Assembly (NCBI GenBank): GCA_000182565.2 | Contig: KQ257469.1 | From: Spizellomyces punctatus DAOM BR117 | Lineage: Eukaryota | Reading direction: 5' to 3' (one strand) | Length of the DNA: 64,000 nucleotides | Part shown: piece after piece, positions 4,134 through 55,811 of the stretch | How positions within the stretch are numbered: the stretch's first letter is position 1 | Layout: each line of letters begins with the position of its first letter | Notes under the pieces: model-generated | What the model was told of the DNA's origin: nothing | The model's input: the letters and a program-made list of their open reading frames with translations, nothing else | Database searches by the model: none | Translations under genes and position numbers: made by a program

Positions 4134-4744
4134 TCGGACAAACTGGAGCAACGAGCGCTGGTGATGCAAATGCTACAAACCACACTGCTGACTGTCCGAG
4201 CTGACTCACAGACTGAGTGATGAGTCACGTAATGGAGGGCAAGGTCGATCGACCATATATTGGAATGCATAATGCTCCAAGGCTTCATATGAAAACTACA
4301 CAAATGTCTTTGGAATCATCTCAATGCTGACTGTCAGCAAATATTCAGTATCTTCATTTGGTTGGCAATCAGTCAGCCTGTATGGCAAAGAAAGCATTCA
4401 ACGGTTGTCAATGGGGTGGACACATTATCTTATTCTATTCAAGTACGCCATTATAGTAACTGGTGTGCTGAAGGCTCTCAGAATCGCAGCAGTTCTCAAA
4501 TAAGTCTCTGGCTCGCTGAAAGTAACAGCTGCCAACAGCGGCTGGTCGAACGGCGGGCGCGTCGCCCATCGCCTGATCCAACCAAAGAAACCCGCATGTT
4601 CAGCGCGTCGCACGATATGCCTCGCCCCGAGATCTGCAAACCACACATTCACAAAAACAGAACACTTGAGCCGCTTCTTGATCCACCTCCATTTTTAACA
4701 AACGACTCCAAGAACCCACACCCACACCACCGGCATTCGTAGAT

Positions 4745-6025
4745 ATGCTTTCAACGAACCCCCATGCGTTCGAAGTAACGGTCTCAGCACCCGTAAACAT
4801 CGCCGTCGTAAAGTACTGGGGAAAGCGAGACACATCCCTCCTACTTCCCACCAACTCTTCGCTGTCTCTTACGCTTTCTCAAGATGACCTCCGCTCGACG
4901 ACAACAGTACGAGCCGACCCGTCGTTCGAAAGAGATCGTTTATGGTTGAACGGGAAAGAAGAGGATGTAACAAAGAATAAGCGTATGGTGAATGTTGTAC
5001 GAGAGCTACGCGCCTTGAGACAGCGGATGGAACAAGACGATGCGTCATTAGAAAAACTCTCTGCCCAAAAACTTCACGTGTGTTCCCAAAACAACTTTCC
5101 AACGGCCGCAGGACTAGCTTCCAGCGCAAGCGGTTTCGCAGCTCTGACATTCGGTATCGCCCACGCAATAGGCGTAGCCGACAAGGTATCCAGATCCGAC
5201 CTATCCCGTCTCGCACGACTCGGATCCGGATCTGCCTGCAGGAGTTTATTTGGCGGGTTCGTCGCCTGGGAAATGGGTTCAAGACCAGATGGTGTCGACT
5301 CTGTCGCCGTCCAAGTAGCCGATGAATCCCATTGGCCAGATATGGAAGCCCTCGTTCTCGTAGCATCAGACGCCCGAAAGGACACTCCATCGACAGCAGG
5401 AATGCAATTAACCGTGGAGACCTCTGAACTACTCCAAGAGCGCATCCGTCAAGTGCCACAACGCATGCAAGATATGAAACAAGCAATCGCCAACAAAGAT
5501 TACGATGCATTCGCTGAGCTGACCATGATGGATTCGAATCAATTCCATGCAGTTTGTTTGGACACTTTTCCCCCAATTACGTACCTCAACGACGTCTCTC
5601 GAGCTGTCATCCACCTCATTACAGCCTACAACGCATTGTTCACTGGCGACGGAAGGAGTGGTCGTGGAAAGAAGGGGTATCGCGCGGCATATACATTTGA
5701 CGCAGGACCAAATGCTGTCTTGTACATTTTGAAGGAGCATGTTCCAGAGGTATTGGCCCTTGTCAACAGATTCTTTCCTCCACCAGAGGGGGAAGGTGAG
5801 AGGAAAGAGTACTTTGGACGGGCTGCAAATTTTATGGGATCCGAGAACGTCAAAGCTGTCGATGACATGGTTTCCAGAATTGGTATGAAACCGCTTGAAA
5901 GGGGGAGCTTGAGGAGAATCATAAGCACAAGTGTTGGTGATGGGCCAAGGATATTAGCTAGAGGATGGAACGCCCATGTTTCGCTTCTTGGCGAAGATGG
6001 ACTTCCCAAGACAGAGATTGCATAG
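4745..6025 (+). CDS. MVD1: Diphosphomevalonate decarboxylase (intronless)
   Basis: APVNIAVVKYWGKRD, NNFPTAAGLASSASG, GSGSACRSLFGG, AYTFDAGPNAV. Confidence 0.97.
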   Translation: MLSTNPHAFEVTVSAPVNIAVVKYWGKRDTSLLLPTNSSLSLTLSQDDLRSTTTVRADPSFERDRLWLNGKEEDVTKNKRMVNVVRELRALRQRMEQDDASLEKLSAQKLHVCSQNNFPTAAGLASSASGFAALTFGIAHAIGVADKVSRSDLSRLARLGSGSACRSLFGGFVAWEMGSRPDGVDSVAVQVADESHWPDMEALVLVASDARKDTPSTAGMQLTVETSELLQERIRQVPQRMQDMKQAIANKDYDAFAELTMMDSNQFHAVCLDTFPPITYLNDVSRAVIHLITAYNALFTGDGRSGRGKKGYRAAYTFDAGPNAVLYILKEHVPEVLALVNRFFPPPEGEGERKEYFGRAANFMGSENVKAVDDMVSRIGMKPLERGSLRRIISTSVGDGPRILARGWNAHVSLLGEDGLPKTEIA

Positions 6026-18176: not shown

Positions 18177-21100
18177 TTATCGCTTGGGCTTCCTGAAAAG
18201 ATAGGTGAAGAAGACCGTCACGACAATGTTAAATATCCAATAGCAGATGAAAATGCCCAAATTCCTCCACCGGTTTCCAAAATCCCAATCATACACATCA
18301 ATGTACTGATTGCCGTCTGCAAATTGACAATAGTCGCAAGTAGTGGTACTGTTGGGATTCGCAATGTAGCCGGGTGCACCGATGGAAAAGAACTCTTTTG
18401 TATAGTCGTAACAAGTTGTGTTTGGCGGTGCAGAGAAGCGAATGAAATCTTCGTCCGTGCATTGTACAGGCACGTCATGAAGAACGTTGACCACAAAGCC
18501 TTCCAGGAGATAATGGTATGGATCCAGTGGATACATCCATGCCTTCCAGAACTCGGCGAGCGCTTGTGGGGGGATAAGGACACCACAGAAGAGAATGAGG
18601 AAGGAGAAAANNNNNNNNNNNNNNNNNNNNNNNNNNNNNNNNNNNNNNNNNNNNNNNNNNNNNNNNNNNNNNNNNNNNNNNNNNNNNNNNNNNNNNNNNN
18701 NNNNNNNNNNNNNNATGTTGGCGCAGAAAGCACTGTGGATACAAACCAGTGGTTAGATATTTGTATCAAAAGAAAGATGATTTACGACACACAGATACAT
18801 ACGCAACGGCCTGTCCCAGCGACACAGCGTAGAACAAGTAGAACGTGAGCAGCAAGAAGAAATAGAATCCTCGTTCCGCCGAGGTTCCGAGTCCAGCAGT
18901 CCAGTACGAGACGATGAAACAGAAAGCAGACGTGATGACCAGGTATGGGAGCTCAGTGAGCACAATCGAAATCGCAAACGGTACAAATCCATAAAACTTG
19001 CTAGCGTATTCGCGTCGGAAATAGGCTCTTTGCTGCATGAACTGAGGTTGGGCGAGAATGATAACTGAATTTCCCAAAACGAGCAACTGGAAAATGAAAA
19101 AGATACGGGATGCAAGGTCGGAAGTGGAATTGCCGAGTTGGTAAAACGTAAAACCGTTGAAAAGACCAACGAAAAGGGCGTTGAGGAATCGACCAAAGTT
19201 GTACGTGGTATCACGCCAGAATACAAGGTTCATTCTTTTGTAGACCTGAGCGAGTTGGTAACCCATCGATGTCGAGAATTCACGGGCATTGGGGTCCTTG
19301 GGTTGTGATCCAGCGCCTTTGGAAATGGTGTTGAGTTCCTCAGTGACAGACTTCTTTTCCGGACTGTTCTTCCAGACGTCCGCCCAGTCAATTGCAGATT
19401 TGCCACCAGAGACACCGGCACCGATCACCTGCAGAATGTACTCTGCAGGATTCTCCTCGGTTGAGGCCTTGCGTGCACCGTTGCGCTCAAAGTAATCCAA
19501 CATAACCTTTGAATCCTTTCCAATATCGCCAAAGTATACAGTTTTACCACCGCGAGCCAACAAGAGCAATCGGTCAAAGTGTTCAAACAAGATCGAGGAA
19601 GGTTGATGGATGGTACAAACGAGGGGCATGCCGTGATCCGCGAGTTTCCGAATAAACTTGATGATATTGTAGGAAGACTGGGCGTCGAGACCAGAGGTGG
19701 GTTCATCCAAGAACATGAGTCGGGGTTTACCAACAAGTTCCATTCCAATAGTCAGACGCTTGCGTTCCTCCACAGAAATACCACGACCAGTGTCCAAACT
19801 ACCAATGAGGGCATCACCAAGTTGAGTCATTTCCATCATGTCCAAAACTTTCTCGACGTAGGCGTATTTTTCTTCGATGGGTACCGAGGGGTCTTGACGC
19901 ATCATGGCAGAGAACCGGAGAGCTTCACGCACGGTTTGGTTGGGGTTATGGATATCCATTTGTTCAACATATCCAGTGATACGCTCAAAGTCAATGCCGA
20001 GTTCTTTACCGTCGAGGAAAACCTTTCCGTCAATGCGACCGATAGTCTTACGCTTCGCCAATACATCAAGAAGTGTTGTCTTTCCAGCACCAGAGGATCC
20101 CATGAGGGCGGTCATCTGTCCAGGCTTGATCCAGCCTTCGACGGCGTCCAAGAGCTGTCTTTCGCCGCCCTTTACGGGAACAGTGTAATTGACATCTTGC
20201 CATGTAAATGTAGTATCGCTCGCAAATCCGGTATCGCTCTCCTCTGTTGCAACCTCAGAGACTTTGAGTTCGCTCGTGTCGTTTTGTTTGGGAGCTTTTC
20301 CCTTTTTGTAGACTTGACGCGTGTATCCTCCTTCGATCAAATCAATGTATTCCATGGCAATACAGTTGAGGAGAATGAACAGGAACCAGAAGAGCACGAT
20401 GGCGATAATGCTAATGTTCATTTGACTTTCTTTGTAGCCAAAAGTTTCGCGGACGTAGTCTTCACCTCGGACGAATAGCTCGTTACCAGATTGTCCTTTG
20501 AGCGTGCACGTTCGGTAGAGGTCATTGGTATATGAGGGTCCAAAGGGTACAGCTTCGGTTCCAGTGCACGGGAAGATTAGACCTTTCATTTCGTTAAGGA
20601 GGAGAGCCTTGAAACCGTAGCCCAATGGGTTGATATAGTACAACTAGATAGAAATCAATGGATGGTGAGCTTCCTGCAATCGGCTACCGTCGCATAAAGA
20701 GATAAAGCATACCCAAATGAACCATCCGTGCATCTTATCCGTAGTAATCAAAAATCCGTTATACGACAGGGCCGCAATCAAAATGATGTTTGCAAGTTGT
20801 GATGCGCTGAAATACGATTTGCAGACACTTCCACAAAGCCTAAACACCTCTGTCATGCAGAGACCAGTGACAAAGATTGTAAACACAAACACAAAGAAAG
20901 CGCCAGCGTCCGTTCTGAGTCCTTCTATAAAGTAGGCACAGATCGAAAACGCAAACACTTGCAACAGGGTATTTGGTATATCTGCTACGACGGCGGCGAT
21001 GTGATAGGCGGAGGGGTAGTACATTGCGTAAGATTTGTGCTTGGCGAGAATCCGACGACCACGCATGGCATTGGGAAGTTCAGAGAGAGACTGTATTCAA

Positions 21101-23094
21101 GGTATTATATTAGTACGAGCCATGAATGAAACGTAATGCAGGCCAAGACTCACCATCAGGGCGTTAAACATGAGGGAAGAAAACAAGGCTGCACCACGAA
21201 CGAAAGCACCGTTGGCATTGAGCGGTAGGTTGACATAGATTGTCGCGTAAATAAAGGCTTTGATAATCGTGAGGATAAGCTTGCCGATCAACGAGGCCTT
21301 GTCACCCGTCATGAGTTGTAGCTCACGAGCAACAAGGGCCTTGACTTGCTCATAAAAGTTGTTGGTATAAATGGTAGAGGCACGAGTACCCTTTGTCTTG
21401 GCTTGGAGAACCGTATCGTGGAATTCACGGTACGGTTGTTCCTTCTCAACAAAGGATTCATATTCGGAAATATCCATTTTCAAGCGCCTGTAGTCGTCTG
21501 AATTTTTAAAGTAGGCTTCCATGTCAACGGGATTACTGGGTACTTTGGCCCGGTCAACACCAGGCTGGTACAAGCGCTCGTTGGGGTTGGTGATACCGGT
21601 CAAGAAATCAGGCGTACTCTTCCGAGGCTCACAAGCGTATCCCATTTCCTGGAAGTACTTTTTGGCCCGGTTGACGGGACCAAAGAAGATCATGCGTCCT
21701 TTGTCAAGGACCATGACCTTGTCAAAGAGTTGGTACATGTCCTCGGACGCTTGGTAGAATGAGGCGATGGTTGTCTTGTTAAGAGTGTCACTCATGATCC
21801 GGAGACCACGGGTATAATCCAGAGCCGAAGCAGCGTCCAAGCCACGAGTACTGCAATCCCAGCAGTTGACGGCTGCACGAGCAGTCTAGCAATGGCAGCA
21901 ACCGAGTTAGCAACATGAGCTTCCATTTCAGACGTAAAAAAAAACAAAATACCCACCATGGCTTCTGTAATGGTCATACGCTTTCGCTCACCACCAGACA
22001 ATCCACGAACCCATTCGTTACCCACCAACGTGTTGATTTGCTTTGTGAGACCAAACATGTTGGTGAGCATGTATACAACCTTTTGTCTGAACTCGCGGCG
22101 GGTCAAATCGGGAAGTCGCTTGCCAGGTGTTTTGGTCTTTAGGGCAAAGTGGAGGGTTTCTTTGACAGTGAGAGTAGGAAAGTGGCTGCAATAGGCGACG
22201 ACAAATAAGAAACGTGATGCTTGTTAACAGTTAATGTCAATTCTTGACTTACGTGTCTTCCTCAGCAGTGTAAATGGCCTCTCCTGCAAATCTCCCGAAT
22301 TCGGATGCAGGAACACCACCGTAAGTGATGACACCTTGGATATCCTTGTAGGTTTTGGTATCATTCGCCATAACGCGCAGGAACGAAGAACAGCCGGAAC
22401 CCGGACGTCCAAGAACCAAAAGCATTTCTCCATCCTTGACCACACCGTTGAGTTCGTGTAGGATATCAAAGTCTGTTCCCTTCTGTTCTTTGCGGAACCT
22501 GTTTATTTTTCGATAATCGGTTAATCGGGGAGGAATGATCGGCACGTGTCGCGTTATCTGAATGGTAAATGAGACTTACCAAGAGAGTGGATTCAAGGCT
22601 TTCAAGCCATCAACGATGACGTCTCCCACATTGGAAATGCTGCTGGCATCAGCACCTTCACCAACGACGGTCAAGCCCTTGAAGACGACACCCATTCGCT
22701 TTCTCCCAATACCCTGCTCTGACGCTGCACGAACACTAGACTCTAAAAAGTCTTTCAGGTCAAATTGCTGCCCTTCTTCCACGATTACGTCAGCACCGCC
22801 TTCCAAGTCGGTAAGACCGATTTTCATGTCATCGGCCCCAACTTTGTTCGTCTTGTTCGTCTTGCTGCTTTTCATAGAGGGATCACGGGTAAGGGTTCGT
22901 CGCAATTCCAGCTCTGCACGGTGGAATTCTGACACTCCCTCGTCGACATTGACCTGTTGACCTTGCTGGTCATCATCTTCGATTGGTCGTGCGCCGTCAT
23001 TGACATCACCGAAAGCGTCACGGAGAGTGGGAACACCTCCAGTAGAGACTGCGTCTGCAGCGTTATAGCGAGGAGGACCGCTAACGCTCTCCAT
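18177..23094 (-). CDS. Full-size PDR/ABCG multidrug ABC transporter (multi-exon, spans an assembly gap)
   Basis: NBD1 [22 protein letters not shown] and [17 protein letters not shown]2 [33 protein letters not shown] and CTIHQPS. Confidence 0.95.
18611..18714. other. Assembly gap (104 N)
   Basis: Run of N inside the 3' part of the ABC transporter. Confidence 1.
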
Positions 23095-41986: not shown

Positions 41987-43460
41987 CTACAACTTACTAT
42001 GGCTAACCTGAAGTTGCTTCTCTCTGTCAAGGACTTGACCAAGTCTCTCTAATCCAAGGCTCAATAGCGGCCATGACACAGTGAAAACAATGCGAAACCA
42101 CCCTGTCTCGGAAATATTGAACGCTTCACCTGGCAGTATATAAATCCCGCCATCCAAAAGCTTGTACCATAATTTTCTCCAGGGCTCATCCCCACTCTTC
42201 CCAGGAGCTTCAAACCATTTTGATAAATTCACCCTATAACATTATGGAACAGGTATTAGCATCAGGTAGTGGGCAGCGCAATATGAGGGTACGTACAGCA
42301 CAAAAAACCCGCTATCGGCAGTCATGAAAGGTATTTCCATCTTATTCAACTCCCCAACCAACCTCCCGTACTGTTCCTTCATCCTTTTCTGATTCTCCTC
42401 TACAAACCATTCCACCCACTGCTCGTCTTGTAATAGATTAGCAACAGCCCGATCGGCGAGACTGGAAGTGTTCGTGAATAGCGCAAACATCTGCATCGCG
42501 GCCAGTACCTCTGGGTTCCTGGATACGCAAGCACCAACACGCACGCCATTGATGCAAAAATCTTTTGACATGCTCCAAAGAACATGCGTATGCTCCGGAT
42601 CTGGGAGATCTGGGATGGATAAAACGGAGACAAAAGGGTTGGGGTTGATAAAGGTAGACAGAGCATAGATTTCATCAGAAATGACGTGGAGGTTGTGCTC
42701 TTTGGCCCAACGTAGTAAAGGCATAATTTCGGAAATCGAAAGAGCACGACCATGTGGATTTTGAGGATTGGTGAGTAGAAGTGCCCGTACTGTGATGTTA
42801 TCTTCCAGTGCAGCTTGATACGCCCTTTCTAGAGCGCTAACCTCGATCTTGAACGCATTCGCTCCGCTGGTATGAACGTGAATAGGTCGTGCTTCCGCAT
42901 ACTGACATCGGGTAAGTTTAAGAGCGGCGTCGTGACAAAGCATCTTACATCCATACCAGTGTCAAGTCAAAGTCGAAACCCCCATAGTACGGCGTAGGCA
43001 CTAAAATTCCTTCCCCGGGATTGGCAATGGTCTGTGCGATATTATTCACCGTTGCGCCGCAACCAGCATGTATCGTAATCTCATCCGGTCTAATCGCTGT
43101 ACACGGTTTCAAGTACTTGTTGAAAAGGTTGGCAACGGCTTTCCGAAGTGGTTCCGACCCGTGCATTGTTCCGTATTTCAACATATCTTCTGTTACTTGC
43201 CGTATTGAAGAAGAATTGAGCTGTGGATGATGAAAGATAATGAGAAGCTCTCCTAACATCTCTATAGCTCTTGAACGAACCTTCTCCAACAATTCTGGAA
43301 ACATCAAATGGTTTTCCGCCGTTCCCAAATTTACAACACCATTGGGAGACGCAACGGCATCATAGGGATTCGCAAGTGCTCGCGAAAGACCTTCCAATAA
43401 TGGAGACTTGTGCGCTGCGGCCGCTTGTGCTAGCCGCGATGTGCAAGGTCCTTGAGTCAT
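41987..43460 (-). CDS. PLP-dependent class I aminotransferase, ACC-synthase-like
   Basis: NPYDAVASPNGVVNLGTAEN, LVPTPYYGGFDFD, LLTNPQNPHG, ISDEIYA, SMSKDFCINGVRVG (PLP lysine), GWFRIVF. Confidence 0.9.
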
Positions 43461-43795
43461 TTGGAGATAACAAGTATGTACGATCTCACAATGGGCAGAG
43501 CAGATCAATTTCCCAAGATTCAAACATGAGTAATCTGGTTAATTAACTGAGCTGTGCTTATGTAATGAACTTATCCCGTCATTTCCAAAGTTCGGTGCTG
43601 ACAGTCGAGTTTCAAAAAGGCCAAGCTATGGCGAAGTAAAGGGACTACCATCAAGTCAACTTGGCTATTAGATCCAAAGGGCACTGAGTGGACAAGTTCT
43701 ATTCTTTTATGAACTGTTCAAATGTTTCTTTTATATGAGTCCCCGCATACTAAAAACTTGCACTACTGTCAAGACCCAAAAAGTCTGACAAAATA

Positions 43796-46700
43796 TCAAG
43801 GTTTGCCTTTGTCTGTCTGGTTCACAGACGTGCTGGAGCGCATCCTCCACTTTGCTCCGTAAATCATCACGATAACTACGAGCGCTGCACCAGTAACATC
43901 CACCATCGCCACGGACAAGAAAGCGGGCCATAGGCCTACCTTGTTAGTAAAGGGACCAATGATGGCGGAACCAAGGGCTGCCGCTGGGTTACGGAATAAA
44001 CTGTTCAGTGCCACAACACTTGAAGCTGATCCTGGAAAGCTGTCTATGAGGTACGTAGTGTTGCATGAGAAGAGCCAGGTCATCCCAAAGACACCTATTG
44101 CAATATACAATAAGCAAGGGTAACATTTTGATATACACGCAAGATGAGGTACTCACTGATAAAGAGCGACACAAGTAATAGGCTGACATGCCAGTGGAAG
44201 TGTCCCGCAAATCCAAAAAGGGCCAATCCGACTGGAAAGAGGATGATTCCAACCCACTGAGAGCGGATGCGTGATTCTGGCACATGGTCCAATCCCGTAG
44301 CTGACATCGCTTGGTGCAGCTTCCAATCCGCATAGCGGCCGCCAATAGTGGAGCCGAGAATGAATCCCACCCCAGTTGGAATGTAGGAAATGCCCACACG
44401 TGATGCGTCGTATCCGTAAACGTCTTTGAGCACAGCTGGGATTTCGACATTGAGACAGTAAAAAGAACCTGATAATGTCCATGATGGGAGAATGAGAGAA
44501 GTGACTACAAGGTATTCAATAATAACACAAATAACCTACCAAAGATGATACCGATGTAGGTGACGCATAGAGTAATGGACCTGAAGCGGAGGAAACGAAG
44601 TGGTGCAAGGGGATTATACTTTGTAGCAGACTTGGCGGCCTTGGTCTCCTCAAGGATATGCGGGCCAGGGAAGACCAACAGGCCATGGTCGGCGTACACC
44701 TGACCATTGCCAACCTTTGCTCGAAGAGTTTCCGGAAGAAACAACAAAAAGAGTATCCAAGTGACCGCTCCAAGGCCTGCCAGAAAGAAAAAGATCCATC
44801 TCCAACTGGCGTATTCAGTCAGGAAACCACCCAGAACAGGTCCAATGAGAGGTCCCATCTGCGGGCCAAGAAGGAATATCCCCATGGCTCGGCCGCGTTC
44901 GGTAGGTTTAAACAAGTCCGCAATGGTGCCAGCACCAAGAGATTGGACGGATGATGCTCCAATAGCTTGCACAATACGCAGTACGAGAAGGAGAGCATAA
45001 GATTGACTGAATCCAAGAGCAATGCTTGCGGCAACATAGATGGCAAACGATATGAGATACACGTTGCGGCGACCTGCCGAGTCCGCCAAGGTTCCCCATC
45101 CCATTGGCTGTTTGAAACAAGAAAATGCTGTAGTCACAAATGCGAAAAGGATAGAACATTCATGTAGACATTACCGCCACTGCAAAGGTCAACATAAACA
45201 TGGAAACTGTCAAGTTAATCATCGACACGCTGGTACCAAAGGCGGTTCTAATGCTCTCCATGGCAGGTAACTAAAAAGAAATGTCCATCAATGTCCCTTC
45301 GAAACTGTATGCAAAAGACGCATTACTTACATAGATATTACCAGCCAGCGGCCCAAAACCACCCGCCAATGCAATCAAAAATAGCAGGAATCTCCTGCGA
45401 GCAGGGGAATATGCACAATAAGGTTCTGATGCAGCGACTGAAGTAACCGAAAATTTTGTTGGTTCAGAAGACAGTACGATTTCCTTGACCTCGGCAGCGG
45501 GTGCGATTTCAGACCCGGGATCGGGGAGTTTGCTTTGGGTTCCTGCACCCTGTGGTATTTATTAATGGGAGAACCTTTCTTTATCTTTGGAGCAGAGAGA
45601 GATGCCAGACTTACTTTATACAAGCTGGCAAATGGTTGTTCAATGAGTAAATGGCTCGGCCTTCCATCTTCGTAGAACATAAGTTTGGGCTCTTTTTCGC
45701 CCCCGAGTTTAAGCGCATCCTTCTTCTTTGTTACAATACAGAGACCGTTACTGTCAGAGACGACAAGGTTGTGCCATGGAGTGGGTATATGAAACAATGA
45801 AATCTCTGTAGCGTCGCCTCTCTGACCGTCGAGAGTGCCAGCTTGGAAAACAAAATCTTTGTGTATGAGGTTCACTCCAAATTTGGGCCCAGCACAGTTA
45901 TATCTGTATCAATTCGAATCTTTCCGAATCAGATATGCTTCAATTTCTTGATGCTGTCATCTTCTTACTTACGGATGAATGGATATGCGAACATGAATCG
46001 GAAAAAGACGGCCAACAATTGTAGAATAAGCTTGGTTTCGCTAAGTAGGACAGAAGAAATCTTATTATCTGCATCGAATCACATATACAGAGGCTACAGA
46101 GACACTTACTATCAACATCTCCATCGCAATCTTGGAGCATAACTGCTTACGTGCATTTTTGGATGGTAACGCAAGCATTTCCGGCTGTTGCTGGAGATCT
46201 TCCAGTAAGAACCGAGAGAAGCCGCGATAAAGTCCTGTTACAGATGTATTCTGCTTGATTTCCTCATAAAGTGATTTCTCGTCTCTTCCAGCAAGAAGAC
46301 ACAATAGACGACGGGCGTCGTCAGCCGCCGGCAGCACGGACGCAGATGTGTAACGTGGAATGACATAGCAAGATAGACAAGGCAATTGCTCGGGGAAATG
46401 ACCCGGTTCTTCAGTAAATGTGGCGCGACTCGCATCAAGAGAGAGGAGATCATCAAGACCATGGAAGGTGAATATATCTGGCCTCCCTGACATGCTAGCG
46501 ACCGCAGTCCTTAACGTGCGGCCGTACTCGTTGACGCTGACATCCGGAACACCAACTGAGAGCGTAGTGATAAGTAATAAGAGACAATGTAGCTCCTCCA
46601 AATGACTACACACTTACGCAAGTCACTAAAGACATGACCATCAGAAACAATGGCGAATCGAACGCCAGGGACATACACTACTTCAATCATCTCCGCTACT

Positions 46701-47413
46701 TTGACCATAGTCTTGAAAGCGAGCTCTTCTCCTTTATCGGGAAGAGTTCCCAACACCTTGGACTCCTTGTTAGGTGACTTGCAGGGAAACCCGGGAAGGA
46801 TGAACTGAATGGGTAGGCTGCGATCGATGAAGTACTCAATCTTGTAGATGAAAAAGTCTCGCCCGCCCCCAGAGATCCATTGATCGTCGTGCGCCTTGAA
46901 ACGGAAATGACTGTCCAAGATTTCCGCAATGACAGCGGAGAGTTTTTTATTGTTTTCAGACCGCACTGGATGCAGAGACCAAGGCGTCACACGGCATTTA
47001 ATGGTGAGAAGACTCGAGAGGTAATGGATAATATCCGGCATGTTATCATTGTCAGCATCGTCGAGGTGACTGAGCGCTGCAACGCCTTGTATTGCCATAG
47101 ATGAATCCCGGGGAAGTGCCCTCTCATAGAATGTGACCGATTGTGCCGTCGTGAATTGGTCATCAAGTTCGACATTATACTTGTTGAGCTCTCCGTGAAG
47201 TCGAAGCGTAACAGCTCTGTGGCGTGCCGCTTCTTCAATAAAACTTGGTTTCACAAGCGCGGAAATGCTCGTGGGGAGCTGTCTGTCATCATCGGGACTG
47301 ACGGATTTCTCATAGGAAGAAGAAAGAAAATGAAGCTTCCCGTCCGCGTCGCATACATATACGAATAAAATAGCCTCTGTCGGCGATCTTGGCAAAGAGA
47401 TCTTGGTGTTCAT
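43796..47413 (-). CDS. DIT1: Predicted fusion of a Dit1/PvcA-type isocyanide synthase (about 533 aa) and a Dtr1/Qdr-like DHA1 MFS exporter (about 497 aa), 9 exons
   Basis: Exons 47413-46618, 46555-46110, 46040-45973, 45903-45615, 45549-45331, 45270-45175, 45107-44540, 44468-44157 and 44094-43796 give one open frame. Dit1 motifs: LPGFPCKSPN, LPDKGEELA, VSDGHVFSD, LYRGFSRF, RISIH, GPKFGV, HIPTPWHN. MFS motifs: GPLAGNIYLPA, WGTLADSAGRR, WRWIF, PETLRAKVGNG. Confidence 0.85.
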
Positions 47414-47577
47414 CGTGGTGCAGCAAAGCAGGAAGGTCGGACAAGGAAAACCGGACATGGCCGGGTCTGTTTTTATGCAACCTATTGTGCAAACAGAGCA
47501 TTAGAGCCAGCACACTGATGTGGCTTAGCGGGGCCACGCGCCGTTTATGCCATTGGGCAATGCAGTGCTTCACGTCT

Positions 47578-47697
47578 ACACGGGGGTTGTATTTCTGATT
47601 GGGAAGTCTCCCTCAATCTCCCCGATCAGGTCTCAGCCAATCAGAGACAGGAGATTCCACAGCCAATTGCATTAACACCGCGCGTCAACCCCCGTGT
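47578..47697. promoter_or_regulatory. Divergent promoter with nested inverted repeats and CCAAT boxes
   Basis: ACACGGGGGTTG (47578-47589) / CAACCCCCGTGT (47686-47697); TCTGATTGG (47594-47602) / CCAATCAGA (47637-47645). Confidence 0.5.
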
Positions 47698-47834
47698 GCA
47701 TAGTTCCGCAAGAACACCCCCAACACTGCCCAGACGGCCAACAACCGATCAGCTCTTTCTTCTCTCTCGTCTCTCTCCTCAACTTGGTTTTTTTTTTTGC
47801 TTGCTTTCCATCTCTTCTTTGCGTCTCATCCACC

Positions 47835-50054
47835 ATGGCAAACTCGACATCTGACTGCAATATTCTTATCGAAAATCCGCTTCCCAGTGGGGAGAAGCGC
47901 GAGTACACTATCGCTGAGGTGGACCGTAACGCTCCGAAAACCTCTTACGCAAGCCTCAGCAGAACGCGTGCTAGGGTGACCCTGGCTTGGTAGGCCGTCT
48001 TCTCTTTGGAACATGTCGTCGTTGTCTAACGTCACTGCTAGCGTCACTCTTGCGTACCTCATTGTCAACCTGGACGGGTCTTCCCCGTCCCTTATGACGA
48101 TTGGCAAAGACCTTGGCGCTTCTTCCCAAGAGCTTCCTTGGATTTTCAATGCATTCACGCTCGTTTCTACCCCTCTCATTCCGCTTTGGAGCCGTTTGGC
48201 TGTTGCATTTGGAGAGAGGACTTGCGTTAGCATTGGATTGCTGACGTTTGTCGCCGGTTCAATTGGCGCTGGTGCATCTAAAAGCATGGAGTCCCTTGCC
48301 ACCTTTCGTGGTTTGCAGGGACTCGGAAATTCCGCAATCACCGCCATGTCTCTCATTGTTTTCACTGGTGAGCGCTTAAGTTTTATTTCTGTTAAACTCG
48401 TGAAAATCGGTACCAATGATATCGTTCTTCAGATCTCTACCCGATTCATAAGCGTGGATTTGCATTCAATATTATTGGTGCTGCCATGGGCCTCGCAATG
48501 GTGATGATACACTTCATGGTTTTCACTCTTTGGCAGTTCAAGATGTTGATGCCGGTTCTTTTATTCACTTAGATTTTGGGCCCTGTTGTTGGCGGCTCGG
48601 TATGTAGCACGGTGCTCCAGGTAGTTTAAACCTTGCCGTCATTTAACCAATTCACTGCGCAGATTACGGACAATACTTCCATGGGCTGGAGATGGATCTA
48701 TTATATTCTCGTTCCGTTGTCTGTTTTCCTCTTGCCGCTTCCAGTATTGGTACAAAACTCTGGTGATCGAAAAACCAGTCGCGGAGCCCTGAAGGATATT
48801 GATTTCATTGGCTTCTTCCTCCTGGTTGCTACCGCAGTGTGTCTTCTATTGGCACTTCAATGGGGTGGATCCCAGTATGAATGGTCTTCTGGTGTCATTA
48901 TCGGACTGTTCTGTGCTGCTGGTGTTGCATTGGCAACCTTTGTATACGTAAGCTGATACTTGGGTTTCCTCCTCTGCAAATCGCATTTGACTAATTCTAT
49001 TGCGCCAGGTGGAAATATATGTTGCAGTGCAACCTGTGATGCCCCCGCATATGTTTAAATCTGTCAACGCCAATGCAGTCTTTCGTAAGTATACAAGTCT
49101 GCTTTTGTTATATTGATTAGCCAGCTAACCATTTGCCTGCAGTTCTGAACTTTTTCCAAGCAGGCGCTTCGATGGCTTTTATGATGTACGGGCCCATGTT
49201 CTATAAGGGCGACAAGGGTGATACAGCTCTACAATCTGCTGTTGATGTCTCTCTTCCCCTGAACTTGTCTTGGTAATTAGAGTCTGCTTTAGCAATTGAG
49301 TTCCAGCTGATCTAAAGTTGCAACACTAGGATGGTGTTTGGTATCGCTTCCTCCCGACTTTTGCCTTATGTTCGCGCCAATCACCTGGTGATCTTGGGTA
49401 CCGCACTTACAACACTAGGGACAGGTCTCTTCTCCCTAGCAGTTTCCCAAGGAGTGCCAAACAAGGGGGTTGCAGCGCTTTACCTCATGATTTTTGGTGC
49501 TGGACAAGGGTTCTCCACGCAGAACAGCTTTCTGGTAGCCCAAGCACATTTACCCGAAGGAGGTGACGCCAAGGTCATGTCCAATTTGCCCGCATACTTT
49601 CACCGCATTGGAGGAAGCATCCTAGTCGCGGTTCTTTCTAGCATCTACAAGCACGCCAATGGTAACGGAGGAATGAGTATGGGTAGCGGAGGTGGTATGA
49701 ACATGAGCGGGGGAACGAGCGGTGGAACGAGCGGTGGAATGGGCGGTGGAATGCAGGTATGTGTCTTGTGTCAGGTATTCGATACACGCATCAAACTCAA
49801 ACCTTTTATGAAAGGCACGAGACTCTATGACAATGACAATGCCAATGCCGAACAGTTCCGGCTCACAAGGAGGCATGAACATGGGCGGCAGCAATTCTAC
49901 GTCAATGGGCGGGTCGAGCATGCACATGGGTTCTACTATTGACGGTACCACTGCTGCATTCCGATGGTCCATTCTGTTTGCCGGGCTCTCGTTTCTTCTT
50001 GCATTTGGCCTCAAAAACACTTGGGTAAAACTCGGTCAAAGGATGGCTCATTAG
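47835..50054 (+). CDS. 14-TM MFS (DHA2-type) transporter with a Met/Gly-rich loop before the last TM
   Basis: LPWIFNAFTLVST...WSRLAVAFG, FRGLQGLG, GWRWIYYI, DFIG, LLLALQWGGSQYEWSS; several short introns. Confidence 0.88.
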
Positions 50055-50819
50055 CTAGTTTACTTCGTCTAGCAGTTTCTGTAGCAAGTTTTCATTTTGT
50101 TTGTTCACGCGAATTCTTATTGTCCAAGTTTAAATACAAATGTGCAACTAGCTTTGAGCTTTACTGCATGCATGCTTGTAGTGAAAAATACCCAATGCCT
50201 TATTGCTTTCATCCTTTAAGTTTCTTCCTTTATATTGTAAAAAGTATCGGGCCCTTCCTCTGAGAGGAGCGCTCGTCATCGCTACAAATGCAGCTCGGAG
50301 CACGTCCGCGCTCCTACCACTTACGTCCCGCGCGGCAAAATCCCTGACACTCCAACAGGAGCAACACCGTCGCTTTTCAACGACGGACCATTAAACGTAT
50401 TTCCGGTATCCGTTTTCGACCGAGTCGAGTTTAACGCCGATCCCGAGGCGATCTTCCCCCCTCTCTCCAACCATAGAAAGAAAACAAGAACACCAAAGAA
50501 AGAGAGAATGTTGGAGAGGTCGGCGAGGAGTATAGAAGTGCGGGGGGAAGAGGAAAGGTCGCCTTTTTATAACCCTGGAGGACTGCGCTTCGCTCAAGTC
50601 TTTTTGCCAATGTCATCCTTCTTCTCCAATAAGAACTCGTCCCTTTCACCTCCTGGCGGAATTCCTCGGGTGCTGACCTCTCTCCTTGATGACAGCGTAA
50701 GATTATGTAAACGCGTAAAGTCATTTTGTTTATATTTTCCCACGGTCCCATTTTGACATCGTTTTGACATGTTCCTACCAAGATTCTACATGCAGCGAGC
50801 TTAATTCTGCAAATACACC

Positions 50820-52761
50820 TTACTCTAACCGCTCAAACTGTAGCCGCAGTCCAACAGGAGCCAGCAATCCACCCGGCGTCATCTTGACTTTTGCATCCCC
50901 AGTCAGGTCCCAAGTGTATTGGTGCAGCAAGACAGCTGCAATGGTTTGCATTTCTGTAAGCGCAAGTTTCATTCCTAGACCTTTACAAAGAACGCAGAAC
51001 GGTTAGATTCCGAAATGGGATAAACAGTTATGATCTTACTGAGCACTTACACTTTCGCTCCCCTTCGGAAAACGGAACCCACTCATACCTTCCCACTCCA
51101 TCTCCGAACCTTTCCGGATCAAATACCTCTGGATCCTTCCATACACGCCGATCATGGTGCGCTCCAAAAGCGTGCCAGCCTACATATGTTTGGGCAGGGA
51201 TAATGAACCGCCCGAGAAACGTGGGACGAGTCGTGCAGCGATTGATGAGCATTGGAATGGGTGGGTACATTCGTAGAGTTTCTTTTACAACTCTTTGGAG
51301 ATAAGGGAGCGAAGGCATGCGTTCTGCCGTGGTTAGCTCTTCTAACGAGTATGCCTGAACTTCAGCTCGAGCTTTGTCTTGAACGTCCTAGAGGGTGAGT
51401 GAATTTAGAATAACCTAACGTCGATGGCAGTCGATCACGTTTTACCTGGTGTTTGGCAAGAAGGTAAAGCAACGACGTTAAAGCCTGCTGAACATTCTCG
51501 TGCCCCGCAACAAAGATGACCATCAAATTGTCCTAATCATTGCAAGTTATCGCTGTGATTTGCATACATAGACCAAGACTCGCATACCAACCCTGAATTC
51601 CTTCTTCGTCAATATTCCACTCTCATACGCCTTCACCAACCTGGCGATAATTGTTAGAACTTGGTTATCCTCTTCAACGGCCTTTTCAGCTGCTTCAAAC
51701 AGCACGCTCTCCATCCAATCAATGCGACGTCGGGCATCAATGCGACTTTTTATAGGCAGCCGATCAAGAACTGGAAAGAAAAGAAAGAGGGGCTTGAAGA
51801 TGCTCTTCTTAACTATCGAATGCGCAACGGAAATTGCTGTATTGGGGTTTTTGATGGCCTTTGCAATTTCGTGTGAGATGAGACATTTCCAATCATGAAG
51901 GAATTGCAGCCCACATTGAATTTTTTGCCAAACGCGGCCATTCCAATACCATCCATTGAGAGTCTAAAAGCCAAGTGTTCGACGATGAGCGGTTCTCATG
52001 TTAGGGGCGCCACTAGTTGGTGGGTAGGGGCCTCACTCACCGTTGCATTAGATTGTTTGTTTCAACTACTTCCGCATTTTTGCACTTCTTGTCTATTTCC
52101 TCAATCATGTCCTTCACGCATTCTTGAAAGACGGCAGGCTTCCAATGCTGTCGAAACCCAGGTGCAAGAACTGTGCGGAAGCGTTGCCATGCCTGTTGAC
52201 ATCCAACAAAACCATAAGTCGGATGGCAAAGAATTGAATCGGCAAGCACTTTCACTTACTTCCTCACGGGTTGAAATGATATTGGCACCCAAGAAGTATG
52301 CCAAAACAGAATGGGGAATCTTTTCATTGTTGCCAGATTTCACAAAGTCATCTGGTATGGAAGCACACATGTAAGCGATGTCCGTACGCCGTCCTCCCAA
52401 CTCGGATACTTGCCGGTTCTACTATAGATTTCTCTCGACATGTCTGGATGCCCGGCAACAATGTTCCAGCGCCCTCCAAACCACATCTACAGCAGATACC
52501 CAGGGCCATGAGCACGTCGCTGTCAGTCGCAATCACAGGAGATCCTACCGCGACAACGCCTTCTTTTTCCATCAAAGGGCGTATGTATCTCATGTATATC
52601 TCATCTTGTCCAAGCTTTGTGACAAACCCTAGTGTGGAGACCCAAAAAGGCACCACCGGAATGTCTTTTGGAAACGAGGACGGAGGAAAGAGGATGCTAC
52701 GTAAGAAGCGTAGTAAGACTAGGGCAAGGAAGAACAGTAGAAGGGCTATGAGGTCGGACAT
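50820..52761 (-). CDS. DIT2: Cytochrome P450, Dit2/CYP56-like (multi-exon, one GC-AG intron)
   Basis: N-terminal anchor plus FPPSSFPKDIPVVPFWV, GQDEIY, FGGRWNI, KSGNNEKIPHSVLA (CYP56-like), IFVAGHEN, KETLRMYPP, FDPERF and the heme motif PFSEGERKCLG. Confidence 0.88.
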
Positions 52762-53511
52762 TCTCGATGAGATCTGTCTGACTACGTGTTAGTACATGAA
52801 AGCGAAACCCCGCTGTCCGAAGGGTAGGACTAACGGCTAACGAAATCTGACTTCCTGGGCTGCTTACGCGAAACCGTTATACCGAACGTTCTGTGTTTTT
52901 GGGTGTACCTTGGCAACCAGGAGGCAGTACACGGAGGAATGTAAGTCTCCTTTCGTGTTCTGATTGAGATCAAAAACACGAGATCGTGGGAGACGTCAAA
53001 TATGTGCGGGAACCGTAGGGGCACTGCGACGGGCGTCACAATATTGGATGACTTCCGATCTCTCTCCGAGCGCCTATTCTTACAACCGGCCAAAATGTAT
53101 GTCCTTTGAGGACTCTCTCCGTTGTGTTGAAACTGACTGCCTACGATCACATCGAATGCTCATGCAAAAATCTCGAACACTTGCGCGTGTTGTTCACTGC
53201 AGTGCTGTGCCATCCGTTCCACCAATCGCAATAGGGGCGCGTGTTATTCCAAGCATACCAGGAAACTCAGGCTCGGCAAGCGACTGGCAGGTCGACAGGG
53301 GGGGTTACCGGAAGTCTCCTTCATGACATTGTTTTGTCTTGCGTAATTTATAAAATAAGGAAGTCGTCTTGCATGCTTTGGACATCTCCCGCAATCTACA
53401 CCAACGGGGAGGATTAAGCTCTCGCGTGACAACCATCCTGCGCCACTCCAATGGCAATAAAAGCGCGCGTTTCGCCGGCAGTCGTCTATTCTTGCTTGTT
53501 TGCAGCTAACA

Positions 53512-55811
53512 ATGACGTTGACGGATCTCATTACATTTAACAAGAAGAAGGAAACTGAAGCACGCACTGACGTGGAGGTGGAAGGTGACTTTTAGCAGGC
53601 GTTTTCCAGCTCATCGTTGCTTTTGCTAACAAAGGGCATAGTGGTTGTGTCCGACGAGGAGAACCAGAATGCACCCTTGTACAAGCACCTTCCTCTTCGA
53701 GAACTCATCATCACATACCTTGGGTAATAAATACATTCTGCATATCCTTCCTTAATACTTTCAGCTCACACATTTTCCACAAGTCTGACAAGTATTCAAG
53801 CCGTGATATCTCTCGAACGGAACGCCTTCCGTCCCATCAGTCCCAACGTGGCGTCAGACTTTGACAGTCTGAATGATCTCTCTTGGCTGGCTACCACAAC
53901 CTTTGCAGTATGGCTTGCCATCGAACCCATATGGGGAAAACTATCGGATTTGTTTGGGAGGAAGCCGCCGTTCATGATTGCCATTGTTGTCTATGTGCTT
54001 GGATTGATACTCTGTAGTGTGAGTCCATCGTGGACCGCGTTCATTGTGCGTATATCGTTGCTGTCAGATTCAAATGGCAGACCGTGTTTCGACATACCAT
54101 CTTTTGTTTTGCAATTCAGATTTTCAGAGCTATTTCCAGTATTGGATCTGGGGGCATCAACAATGCTGTCAACATCATCATATCTGGTAAGTACATAAAA
54201 TACCCTAGAACCCAAAAGGTTATTTGAACGTGACAATGGTCCACTTGCTTTTACTTTAGATATTGTTCCCCTGCGTCACCGTGGAAAATATCAATCTTAC
54301 TACGAAGTAGTGTTCCTCGGTACCAACGTCCTCGGCCCTGTCATGGGCGCAGCATTTGCGAACAACGACAAATGGCGTGGCAATTTTTATGTCTCTGCAG
54401 CATGTGCCACGTTTGTAGGGATTCTCCTCGCCTGGAAATTAAAGTTACCCAGTGCCTTTCGAAGCAAAGAATCGAGTGTAGCTAGAAGAGTTTACGGTCG
54501 GTTGAGAAGAGTTGATTATATTGGGACATTGATGGTTTCGGTGGGAGCTTTTGCTGTTGCTTGTGGCCTTCAACTTGGGAATCGAAAGGAATTCGGATGG
54601 AGCTCCGGTTGGTCTACGCATTTGATCACTATGCCTAACATAGAAGACTAAAATTTCCTTAACTTTCAAGCCAACGTTATAGCTCTTCTCACCTGCGGTT
54701 CGCTGCTTTCAGCTTTATTTGTCGTATATGAATGGAAATACGCTCGTGAACCTCTTCTCCCTCTGCGCCTATTCCGTTATCGAAACGTTGCTGTTGCATT
54801 TTTATTGTCGTTTATCCTCATGATTGGAACAAGCGGGCACGAGCTGTACCAGACCACCTTCTATCAGGTATAATACTGACATTGCACCATTCGGGAAAAC
54901 GTTCCTAGACACTGACAAGTGTCACATGGTTGGACTAGAATATCGTTAACCTGACTCCCTTCAAAGTCGGGCTCATCGAATGGGCCGAAACCATTGGCCA
55001 GACCGTCGGTGGAATTGCGTTTGGGTGGGCCATGGCCTTAACGGGACGGTACCGGCCTTTTCTCTGGTTGAGCATCGCACTAGTGTGTTGCGGCGTTGGG
55101 ATGATGGTGCAGATAAACCCAGATATACCTCATGCTTTATTGGTTGTCCAACGAGCGATATTCGGGATTGGGTTTGGAGCTGTATCCCATGTATTGCTCA
55201 TTGCAGCGCAGGTTGCTGTTGAGCATGTTGGTCGGTTCTTGGCAATGCATTTGAATTTTTTTTTTTTGCATCAGACTAACTCAATACCGCTTATATTCTA
55301 GACATTGCCATCGTAACATCCATGTTCTTTTTCTTTCGCGCGTTGGGGGGTCTCCTCGGTAATGCAATGTATGGCGCATTGTACGATTTTTGGGTCACCC
55401 AAGCATTGCGGAACAGGGCGCCGCCGAATACACCCCAAAGCGCGATCGATGCTGCCAAAAACTCTCTGCGCGGTGGTCGGACTGGAGGTGGACGGTCTAG
55501 TCCAACCTTGGATCGATCCATCGTGGCGAATGCGTACGCTGACACCTCTAGACAGATTATGTGGACTGAATTTGGTATTCTGGTATTTGCGCTTCTCGCC
55601 TCTTTGACGATAGAGCATTTTCCTTTGCCAAAAACTTTGGTGAGTATTAAATTGGATTCGCATTGGGACGGAATGGTGATTGATGATCTCAATTGGGTTT
55701 CCATAATAGGGACGTCGTGGAGTAAAAAGTCATGAAGAGATATCTACTGAGACCCGCTGCGAAACGAAACCAGGATCCGAGGACGAAAGCGCGCCGCCCA
55801 AACCGGCATAG
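53512..55811 (+). CDS. 14-TM MFS (DHA2-type) efflux transporter
   Basis: DLSWLATT, PIWGKLSDLFGRKP, ISDIVPLRHRGKYQ, GPVMG, RRVDYIG, EPLLPLRLF, FFRALGG. Confidence 0.9.

Follow-up and report, generated by a model that had tools for sequence, protein, structure and literature searches.

Does the dityrosine (dit) pathway, so far treated as a yeast and lately as an ascomycete feature, have a counterpart in fungi that form no ascospores? The question is raised by a locus of the chytrid Spizellomyces punctatus DAOM BR117 (order Spizellomycetales). The window analysed here, a 64,000-nucleotide (nt) stretch of contig KQ257469.1 (assembly GCA_000182565.2), holds five intron-bearing genes at 41987-55811: a 1-aminocyclopropane-1-carboxylate (ACC)-synthase-like pyridoxal phosphate (PLP) enzyme (gene 1), a Dit1 domain fused to a DHA1 transporter of the major facilitator superfamily (MFS; gene 2), a DHA2/TRI12-type MFS transporter (gene 3), a Dit2-type cytochrome P450 (gene 4) and a second DHA2/TRI12-type transporter (gene 5). 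Pfam scans, exon-sized reading frames and NCBI protein matches bore out this order and these positions, which a first-pass annotation had read from the DNA letters. That annotation also took the organism to be an apparently zoosporic fungus; its host is indeed a chytrid and not an ascomycete with an ordinary dit cluster.

The first-pass annotation had further proposed that homologues of Dit1, Dit2 and a Dtr1-like exporter lie together in an early-diverging fungus. Our analysis agrees: the Dit1 domain falls in the Dit1-type clade, the P450 groups with Dit2 proteins at full support, and the transporter half of gene 2 finds yeast Qdr2 as its best solved relative. The start codons of the Dit1 and P450 genes, at 47413 and 52761, are 5.3 kb apart. 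We regard the five-gene cluster as probably the chytrid form of the fungal dit pathway, passed down by vertical inheritance. What is new is a dit-type cluster outside Dikarya, an enzyme-transporter fusion, and a lead to copper that reaches the dit loci of ascomycetes.

Fusion of Dit1 to a transporter

The product of gene 2 carries the NCBI label “multidrug resistance protein”. Its largest Dit1 exon is 100% identical to a 1030-amino-acid (aa) NCBI protein of S. punctatus DAOM BR117 that bears both PF05141 and PF07690, and this protein maps exactly to nine exons, with all introns GT..AG and 60-71 nt long. On the DNA, Pfam detected DIT1_PvcA on three exon pieces (1.6e-29, 1.2e-16 and 8.2e-05) and MFS_1 on two. 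The Dit1 domain ends where stand-alone Dit1 proteins have their natural C-terminus, and the removal of intron 4 joins it in frame to a linker of ~40 aa and then to the transporter. In the exon-5 frame, there is a stop just upstream of the acceptor and no ATG ahead of the first transmembrane helix. The match to Qdr2 (32pz; 1.3e-39, residues 574-1011 in two stretches) starts at the first helix, with query residues 574-880 aligned to Qdr2 49-365.

Our expression data come from one RNA run, which is sense-stranded and 3'-biased and whose growth stage is not stated; datasets X1, X4 and X6 are low-coverage DNA contigs spanning introns and have no bearing on expression. In this run, the 3' peak of gene 2 (depth 72.7) lies after the transporter half, where 27 reads with loose poly(A) ends fall at ~43683, and no RNA 3' end was found after the Dit1 domain (depth 0.64). 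Intron 2 was confirmed by three reads (joint 46040/46110). Two models of Cladochytrium tenue, which belongs to an order other than Spizellomycetales, have the same Dit1-MFS architecture, and comparison with gene 2 gave 51% identity over 415 aa for the transporter half and 38% for the Dit1 half. The exon-5 frame, the start of the Qdr2 match, the single 3' end, the Cladochytrium architecture and the 51% transporter identity together indicate that gene 2 encodes one protein. According to the text of a fungal survey (PMC10153163), all surveyed isocyanide synthases (ICS) fall in three architectures, namely single-domain, ICS-TauD and ICS joined to a nonribosomal-peptide-synthetase-like part (ICS-NRPS-like). 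The ICS-MFS fusion is not among these three and, by that text, is new.

The transporter half matches the DHA2 protein EmrB (5e-20) more weakly than the DHA1 protein Qdr2. On these alignments, it is closest to DHA1 members, the Dtr1/Qdr/Aqr group, over the whole transporter. The Atlas clusters nearest to it are named “CTB4” and then “DTR1” (0.99), which we treat as a lead only.

Identity and phylogeny of the Dit1 domain

The Dit1 domain matched solved isonitrile synthases (9dhm/9dh4, 2e-31; PvcA, 3e59, 9e-25) and is 35% identical to Dit1p of S. kudriavzevii over 83% of the query. Family-wide conservation was used in place of catalytic residues, on which the isonitrile synthase literature gave nothing usable. 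The domain keeps 69 of the 72 columns conserved in the family (126 aligned sequences), the departures being A208G, H438Y and N440C, and the blocks FPCKSPN and SDGHVFSD are invariant in nine chytrid Dit1 sequences.

The homologue search returned 362 significant matches, of which the best 120 were listed. The top ten of those listed are chytrid proteins, from Fimicolochytrium, Blyttiomyces, Zopfochytrium, Cladochytrium (two), Phlyctochytrium, Geranomyces (three) and Powellomyces. These ten proteins place Dit1 relatives in at least nine other chytrid species, from three named orders and Blyttiomyces (order unplaced). Below the chytrids in the list come five Selaginella paralogues, followed by ascomycetes with a single basidiomycete. 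When a 52-row tree was rooted on five ICS-TauD proteins, the Dit1-type clade, with the window protein included, received a Shimodaira-Hasegawa-like approximate likelihood ratio test (SH-aLRT) support of 100 and was separate from ICS-TauD. The Dikarya Dit1 group was supported at 97, and the chytrid sequences fall outside it. In an approximately unbiased (AU) test, the grouping of the window Dit1 with Ascomycota was rejected (p-AU 0.0093).

The lycophyte in this list deserves its own mention. Selaginella moellendorffii has at least five Dit1 paralogues (P0018-P0022), on scaffolds of 0.6-4.1 Mb, that share 33-35% identity with chytrid Dit1 over 84-97% of length. In the tree they branch together, amid the chytrid lineages and not within the Dikarya group. 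They could be the product of an old fungus-to-plant transfer. A literature search on DIT1 and Selaginella found only plant-transporter papers.

The Dit2-type P450

Gene 4 gave a Pfam p450 match on one exon (3.7e-31), which is 100% identical to SPPG_08253 (413 aa, same strain), and it contains the heme-cysteine motif FSEGERKCLG, the ExxR motif as ETLR, and DPERF. The SPPG_08253 model starts ~65 aa too late and omits the membrane-anchor exon (52546-52761, minus strand); this exon is matched at 76% (52698-52546) by residues 23-73 of P0130, the orthologue from Fimicolochytrium. The true start, with the membrane anchor, is likely to be at 52761.

Homologues were collected by a full HMMER search of 1.84 billion representative proteins, and names were looked up for 30 matches. 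The best were an unnamed ENA protein, then Borealophlyctis, Irineochytrium and Zopfochytrium, and Dit2-type P450s are present in four other chytrids. Dit2 of Coccidioides was the best non-chytrid full-length match (36% identity, 1.4e-73), followed by proteins of Ascobolus, Fusarium and Lachancea. Three trees, from FastTree (85 rows), a quick IQ-TREE run and a careful IQ-TREE run (42 rows), all agree; their outgroups were drawn from the 150 best matches only, and long multi-domain matches were left out. In the careful tree, five chytrid P450s, one unnamed protein and 19 Dikarya Dit2-type proteins were separated from 18 others at 100/100. Names near the window protein are Dit2, P450-dit2, Dit2p and xanG, the named Dit2 proteins being from Coccidioides, Aspergillus, Diutina and Tilletia, and CYP509A1 is one of the other fungal and amoebal P450s that lie outside the clade. 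The chytrids branch just outside the Dikarya Dit2 group (100/99), in which Tilletia and Tilletiaria are beside the ascomycetes (100/97). In these trees, the branching of the P450 mirrors the species tree.

The first-pass annotation had called this P450 CYP56-like. Its placement among Dit2 proteins stands; the family name fits less well. Gene 4 is 36-39% identical to named Dit2 proteins and their relatives (36% to Coccidioides Dit2, 39% to Ascobolus and 36% to Lachancea), none of which is formally named CYP56A1. P450 family naming needs >40% identity, and under this rule gene 4 would probably not bear the CYP56 name.

Age of the cluster

The P450 tree, the Dit1 tree and the AU rejection of an Ascomycota grouping indicate that the cluster is old in fungi and not a recent transfer. 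The first-pass annotation had left ancestry and horizontal acquisition side by side; the evidence, including the ten chytrid top matches, favours ancestry. A recent acquisition of an ascomycete dit cluster by Spizellomyces would accord with the description of the dit superfamily from Ascomycota only, in a survey whose text discusses phylogenetic incongruences as possible transfers (PMC10153163). However, the genes bear the short GTAAGT introns of the host, Dit1 is found in at least nine other chytrid species and Dit2-type P450s in four others, both trees put the chytrids outside the Dikarya clade, and the AU test speaks against Ascomycota. We consider such a transfer highly improbable.

The chytrid locus is like the DIT1-DIT2 and DTR1 genes of S. 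cerevisiae in having the same three kinds of protein, namely a Dit1-clade single-domain synthase, a Dit2-clade P450 and a Qdr2/Dtr1-like DHA1 transporter. It differs in that Dit1 is fused to the transporter, three extra genes are present and the organism forms no ascospores. In S. cerevisiae, DTR1 is not known to be linked to DIT1 and DIT2. Likewise, in clans 1-3 of the “dit superfamily” of Ascomycota, a Dit1-clade ICS is found beside a Dit2-clade P450, and the text of the survey describes an MFS gene accompanying the dit genes in some clans (Onygenales, clan 3) (Nickles et al. 2023, PMC10153163). In contrast, the chytrid cluster lies outside Ascomycota, and its gene order and orientation differ.

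For neither Spizellomyces nor Chytridiomycota did our literature search find a relevant paper on dityrosine or isocyanide synthases. The words chytrid, Ctr and “copper transport” are absent from the text of the survey (PMC10153163), whose figures or supplements may list these loci. The automatic NCBI names “dityrosine synthesis enzyme” and “cytochrome P450-dit2” show that annotation pipelines had recognised the chytrid homologues. The locus and its relatives, from about ten chytrid species and smut-type basidiomycetes, would move the origin of a linked Dit1/Dit2/transporter set to the base of fungi, and the locus predicts a formyl-tyrosine or dityrosine-type compound in organisms without ascospores.

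Linkage in other fungi and membership of the pathway

Synteny in relatives, which the first-pass annotation had suggested as a check, was found for parts of the block: the fusion recurs in Cladochytrium, the P450-DHA2 pair in Irineochytrium and, probably, the Dit1 and P450 pair in Fimicolochytrium. The Fimicolochytrium Dit1 and P450 are both recorded with a longest contig of 591,245 bases, and from this common value they are probably on one contig. In Irineochytrium (Chytridiales), one model merges a Dit2-type P450 with a gene-3-type transporter.

We also searched environmental sequences with a chytrid Dit1 alignment and obtained 80 loci. In 16 of the 80, Dit1 and a P450 are accompanied by a homologue of the transporter half of gene 2, and eight more have Dit1 and a P450. 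In the 16 loci, the DHA1 homologues show 33-47% best-segment identity in most cases, and all are upstream of Dit1 on the opposite strand. Judged from these matches, the Dit1/P450/DHA1 set occurs widely, in more than one arrangement, of which the chytrid fusion is one.

An ACC-synthase-like gene or a gene-3-type transporter was found at 1e-8 in none of the 80 loci. This favours a pathway of two or three genes only, consisting of Dit1, the P450 and the fused DHA1 half, to which gene 1 and one or both DHA2 genes would be unrelated neighbours, for example drug pumps. RNA 3'-end reads are present for all five genes, and the signal of gene 1 (depth 7.5 and 3.3, minus strand) is the lowest, against 25-74 for the others; this and the fact that MFS genes are common everywhere also fit the smaller pathway. 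The remaining 3' peaks are 74.1 and 29 for gene 3 (plus strand), 24.9 for gene 4 (minus strand; one intron confirmed by seven reads) and 43.1 and 27.6 for gene 5 (plus strand; one intron confirmed by 13 reads, joint 55638/55709). Against the smaller pathway, a gene-3-type transporter adjoins a Dit2-type P450 in another order of chytrids as well, regulatory genes of unrelated kinds enclose all five genes as one compact block, and ~60% of fungal ICS clusters contain an MFS gene according to the survey text (PMC10153163). We find the reduced pathway doubtful.

The best solved relatives of gene 1 are plant ACC synthases (7dlw, which is ACS7, 3.7e-32; 1b8g and 1m4n), as compared with 5e-11 for an aromatic aminotransferase, and this upholds the ACC-synthase-like reading of the first-pass annotation. 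Pfam found Aminotran_1_2 on two exon pieces (1.2e-39 and 1e-09), and a heuristic model gives ~455 aa with introns at 42902-42956 and 42234-42296. The exon translation contains the block SMSKD, which we take to hold the PLP lysine of ACC synthases. On these comparisons, gene 1 is nearer to ACC synthases than to aminotransferases, and its activity is a prediction. Pfam matched gene 5 with MFS_1 and TRI12 on three exon pieces. The extra tailoring and export genes that the first-pass annotation had noted are present in the block, and genes 1 and 5 are candidate members of the pathway.

Two further observations concern linkage in other fungi. The accession numbers of Dit1 and a Dit2-type P450 follow one another in Tilletia horrida, where a 1131-aa model from one isolate merges both; among other smut-type basidiomycetes, Tilletiaria has the P450 and Violaceomyces has Dit1 (proteins P0206, P0298, P0299, P0160 and P0113). 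Some top P450 matches are ~1000 aa long and were considered as Dit1-Dit2 fusions, an idea we rejected: seven of the eight scanned are tandem P450 models, and only the Irineochytrium model P0141 differs, being a P450 with an MFS transporter.

Proposed function

With the chemistry of the yeast dit pathway as described in PMC7345447 and PMC5974471 as a model, the cluster may work as follows. The Dit1 domain, which would be cytosolic as it is fused to the N-terminus of a DHA1 transporter, may convert L-tyrosine to N-formyl-tyrosine or its isocyanide precursor. The membrane-anchored Dit2-type P450 would couple two units into a bisformyl-dityrosine-like dimer, and the Dtr1/Qdr2-like half of the fusion would export the product across the membrane toward the wall or surface of the cell. 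Through the fusion, synthesis and export are probably held side by side, in a membrane-bound assembly with the P450. The two roles suggested by the first-pass annotation, cross-linking of a resting-spore wall or a new tyrosine-derived dimeric metabolite, are both hypotheses. S. punctatus can be cultured and transformed, which would make the product, its location and the copper idea discussed below directly testable.

Several observations weigh against a chytrid dit pathway of this form. Dit1 and the P450 are both on the minus strand with gene 3 between them, and are not adjacent and divergent as in ascomycetes; in Saccharomycotina, dit1 and dit2 are adjacent and divergently transcribed, as described in PMC10153163 and PMC5974471. 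Expression was read from a single run, so co-regulation is putative, and words common to the three upstream regions (genes 2/3, genes 4/5 and gene 1) were no more numerous than in shuffles, a result that also favours the smaller pathway. As for the fusion, no read of the 3'-biased run crosses its joint at intron 4 (depth 0.64), the Cladochytrium models are automatic annotations that apparently are without helix 1, and none of the 80 environmental loci has a DHA1 transporter following Dit1 on its strand, as a second fusion would require. The DHA1 half is called Dtr1-like from its Qdr2 match, orthology to Dtr1 itself being putative, and the attachment of the first enzyme to the exporter would be odd if the P450 acts in between. 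Within the Dit1 domain, H438Y and N440C (region 45900-45973, residues 436-444) lie inside an otherwise conserved block, at columns conserved in at least 93% of 126 Dit1/ICS sequences. The chytrid lineages and Selaginella form an unresolved grade in the Dit1 tree, and the AU test did not reject a position of the window Dit1 beside Dikarya (p 0.074). Finally, the chemistry and localisation of the chytrid pathway are all drawn by homology from yeast.

Gene 3 and a possible link to copper

Irineochytrium annulatum has a “P450-dit2” model, P0141, whose transporter half shares ~42% identity with gene 3, as against 31% with the fused DHA1 half and only 21% with gene 5. An Atlas look-up of the gene-3-type transporter returned generic MFS/TRI12 clusters only. 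Just before its last hydrophobic helix, gene 3 has a loop of 79 aa with 15 Met, 25 Gly, 15 Ser and seven M-x-M motifs; the Met content has a binomial p of about 1e-9 against 2.5% Met. The intron inside the loop (49757-49814) was confirmed by five RNA reads. P0141 carries a loop of the same composition in the corresponding position, 90 aa long with 16 Met, with the sequence itself not conserved, and the alignment of P0141 to the 14-helix transporter EfpA stops just before this loop. The loop would then lie between helices 13 and 14 and should face outward.

Such a segment recalls known copper transporters. Like gene 3, Ctr proteins (PF04145) and Mfc1 are membrane transporters with M-x-M motifs clustered in a segment rich in Gly and Ser. 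Mfc1, an MFS protein as well, is located in the forespore membrane of fission yeast and acts during spore formation, and Met-X-Met and Met-X2-Met have been proposed as its copper ligands, according to PMC3376043. In contrast to Ctr, gene 3 has no homology to that family and carries the motif in a late loop of a DHA2-type protein, and its copper binding is putative.

A second link was found in the environmental loci. In 9 of the 80 (L003, L005, L006, L008, L019, L021, L027, L034 and L075), Dit1 is followed on its own strand, at a distance of 1.4-2 kb, by a Ctr gene (e.g. L075:12576-13073 and L005:10413-10760), and Pfam confirmed Ctr in both loci scanned. Where the P450 is on the Dit1 strand, Ctr is present in eight of nine loci, and the ninth spans just 3.1 kb. 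The genes recur in the order DHA1-MFS(-), P450(+), Dit1(+), Ctr(+), to which DJ-1/PfpI(+) is added in L027 and L034; a DJ-1/PfpI gene, of the isocyanide hydratase family, is found in three environmental loci. The Ctr loci have a guanine-plus-cytosine fraction of 0.51-0.60 and intron-split matches, and they resemble filamentous ascomycetes. A Collariella model, P0038, merges Dit1 and Ctr. Dit-type clusters thus have two independent physical links to copper transport, the gene 3 loop and Ctr at Dit1 loci. From these comparisons, gene 3 is probably a conserved accessory tied to copper. A literature search on DIT1, DIT2 and a copper transporter found the Aspergillus xan paper and plant papers only.

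These findings bring up another account of the locus, a copper-linked metabolite system, in which the cluster makes a formamide or isocyanide from tyrosine that is secreted and, like a chalkophore, binds copper, or in which a wall product needs copper. The fused DHA1 half would export the ligand, and gene 3 would handle either Cu(I) or its complex with that ligand. In its favour are the Met-rich loop, whose composition is kept in Irineochytrium beside a Dit2-type P450, the proposed ligands of Mfc1, and Ctr beside Dit1 in the environmental loci and in the Collariella model. The isocyanide clusters xan and crm of Aspergillus are described as copper-responsive, with XanG as a Dit2 homologue (PMC5974471), and a protein named xanG nests in the Dit2 clade of our trees. 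The xan cluster of Aspergillus fumigatus (XanB, an ICS-TauD protein, and XanG) is also like the chytrid cluster in that a tyrosine-derived unit would be dimerised by a Dit2-type P450, as predicted here, with a possible link to copper.

Other observations speak against the copper-linked system. The Ctr segment of Collariella found nothing in the window (tblastn, E <= 0.01), and Pfam gave gene 3 MFS_1 and TRI12 only. No DJ-1/PfpI hydratase was found in the window. In contrast to xan, the chytrid cluster has a single-domain Dit1 and no TauD-type dioxygenase, so xanthocillin-type vinyl isocyanide chemistry is not expected; it also has three transporter genes, as against none in xan as described in PMC5974471. 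A copper-response element consensus was not enriched, with six matches against 11.5 expected and none in the cluster promoters. Met-rich low-complexity loops can arise in other ways, and the membrane side of the loop is a prediction. The text of the fungal survey gives the dit cluster no known metal association (PMC10153163). On balance, we see the copper-linked system as possible but unlikely, and continue to favour a vertically inherited chytrid dit pathway.

A broader and rather speculative idea, which we would not expect to hold, is that the dit pathway was linked to copper at its root. The chytrid fusion and the putative Cu(I) loop of gene 3 would form an export and re-uptake cycle, or a copper-delivery cycle, around a formyl- or isocyano-tyrosine dimer. 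Ctr would fill the same slot in filamentous ascomycetes, and the metal-free wall dityrosine of budding yeasts would be derived. If this were true, an older metal-handling pathway would date to the common ancestor of chytrids and Dikarya.

One more Dit1 protein touches on isocyanide hydration. At its C-terminus, the Dit1 of Magnusiomyces paraingens (P0034, 810 aa) bears a DJ-1/PfpI domain, which has the isocyanide-hydratase fold. Such a fusion is in keeping with an isocyanide as the product of Dit1 and its later hydration to the formamide.

Gene layout and surroundings

The features of the block are collected in Table 1. Genes 2 and 3 and genes 4 and 5 form two head-to-head pairs of enzyme and transporter, in agreement with the first-pass annotation, and the ends of the block are the stop codons of genes 1 and 5. 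The intron-chaining models of genes 3, 4 and 5 were overfitted, and only start codons and RNA-confirmed introns were taken from them.

Table 1. Positions of the genes and other features of the dit-type block in the S. punctatus window
Feature	Position	Strand	Evidence
Gene 1, ACC-synthase-like PLP enzyme, class I/II aminotransferase fold	41987..43460	-	Pfam, solved-structure matches
Gene 2, Dit1-DHA1 MFS fusion, 1030 aa, nine exons	43796..47413	-	Exact protein-to-exon map
Gene 2 exons 1-4, Dit1 domain, residues 1-533	45615..47413	-	Solved isonitrile synthases, tree
Gene 2 intron 4, 65 nt, GTAAGT..CAG	45550..45614	-	Exon map
Gene 2 exons 5-9, ~40-aa linker and DHA1 transporter, residues 534-1030	43796..45549	-	Qdr2 match
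Divergent intergenic region, genes 2/3	47414..47834	.	Gene 2 exon map and inferred start of gene 3
Gene 3, DHA2/TRI12-type MFS transporter, start inferred	about 47835..50054	+	Pfam MFS_1, TRI12
Gene 3 methionine-rich loop	49652..49946	+	Composition, RNA-confirmed inner intron 49757-49814
Gene 4, Dit2-type P450	50820..52761	-	Pfam p450, trees, motifs
Gene 5, second DHA2/TRI12-type MFS transporter, 5' end approximate, stop codon 55809-55811	about 53323..55811	+	Pfam MFS_1, TRI12

The block is flanked by genes for a RasGEF protein, an F-box protein, unknown proteins and a DUF3455 protein. These are unrelated in type, and the five genes therefore stand out as a distinct block. At 20-37 kb upstream are a PDR/CDR-type ABC transporter (18766-21885, minus strand) and a mevalonate-diphosphate decarboxylase (4682-6025, plus strand), which look like ordinary genes with no evident link to the cluster, and an M3 peptidase is also among the more distant genes of the window. 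Within the block, genes 2 and 1 are packed very closely tail to head, the poly(A) site at ~43683 lying ~110 nt past the stop of gene 2 and ~220 nt before the start of gene 1.

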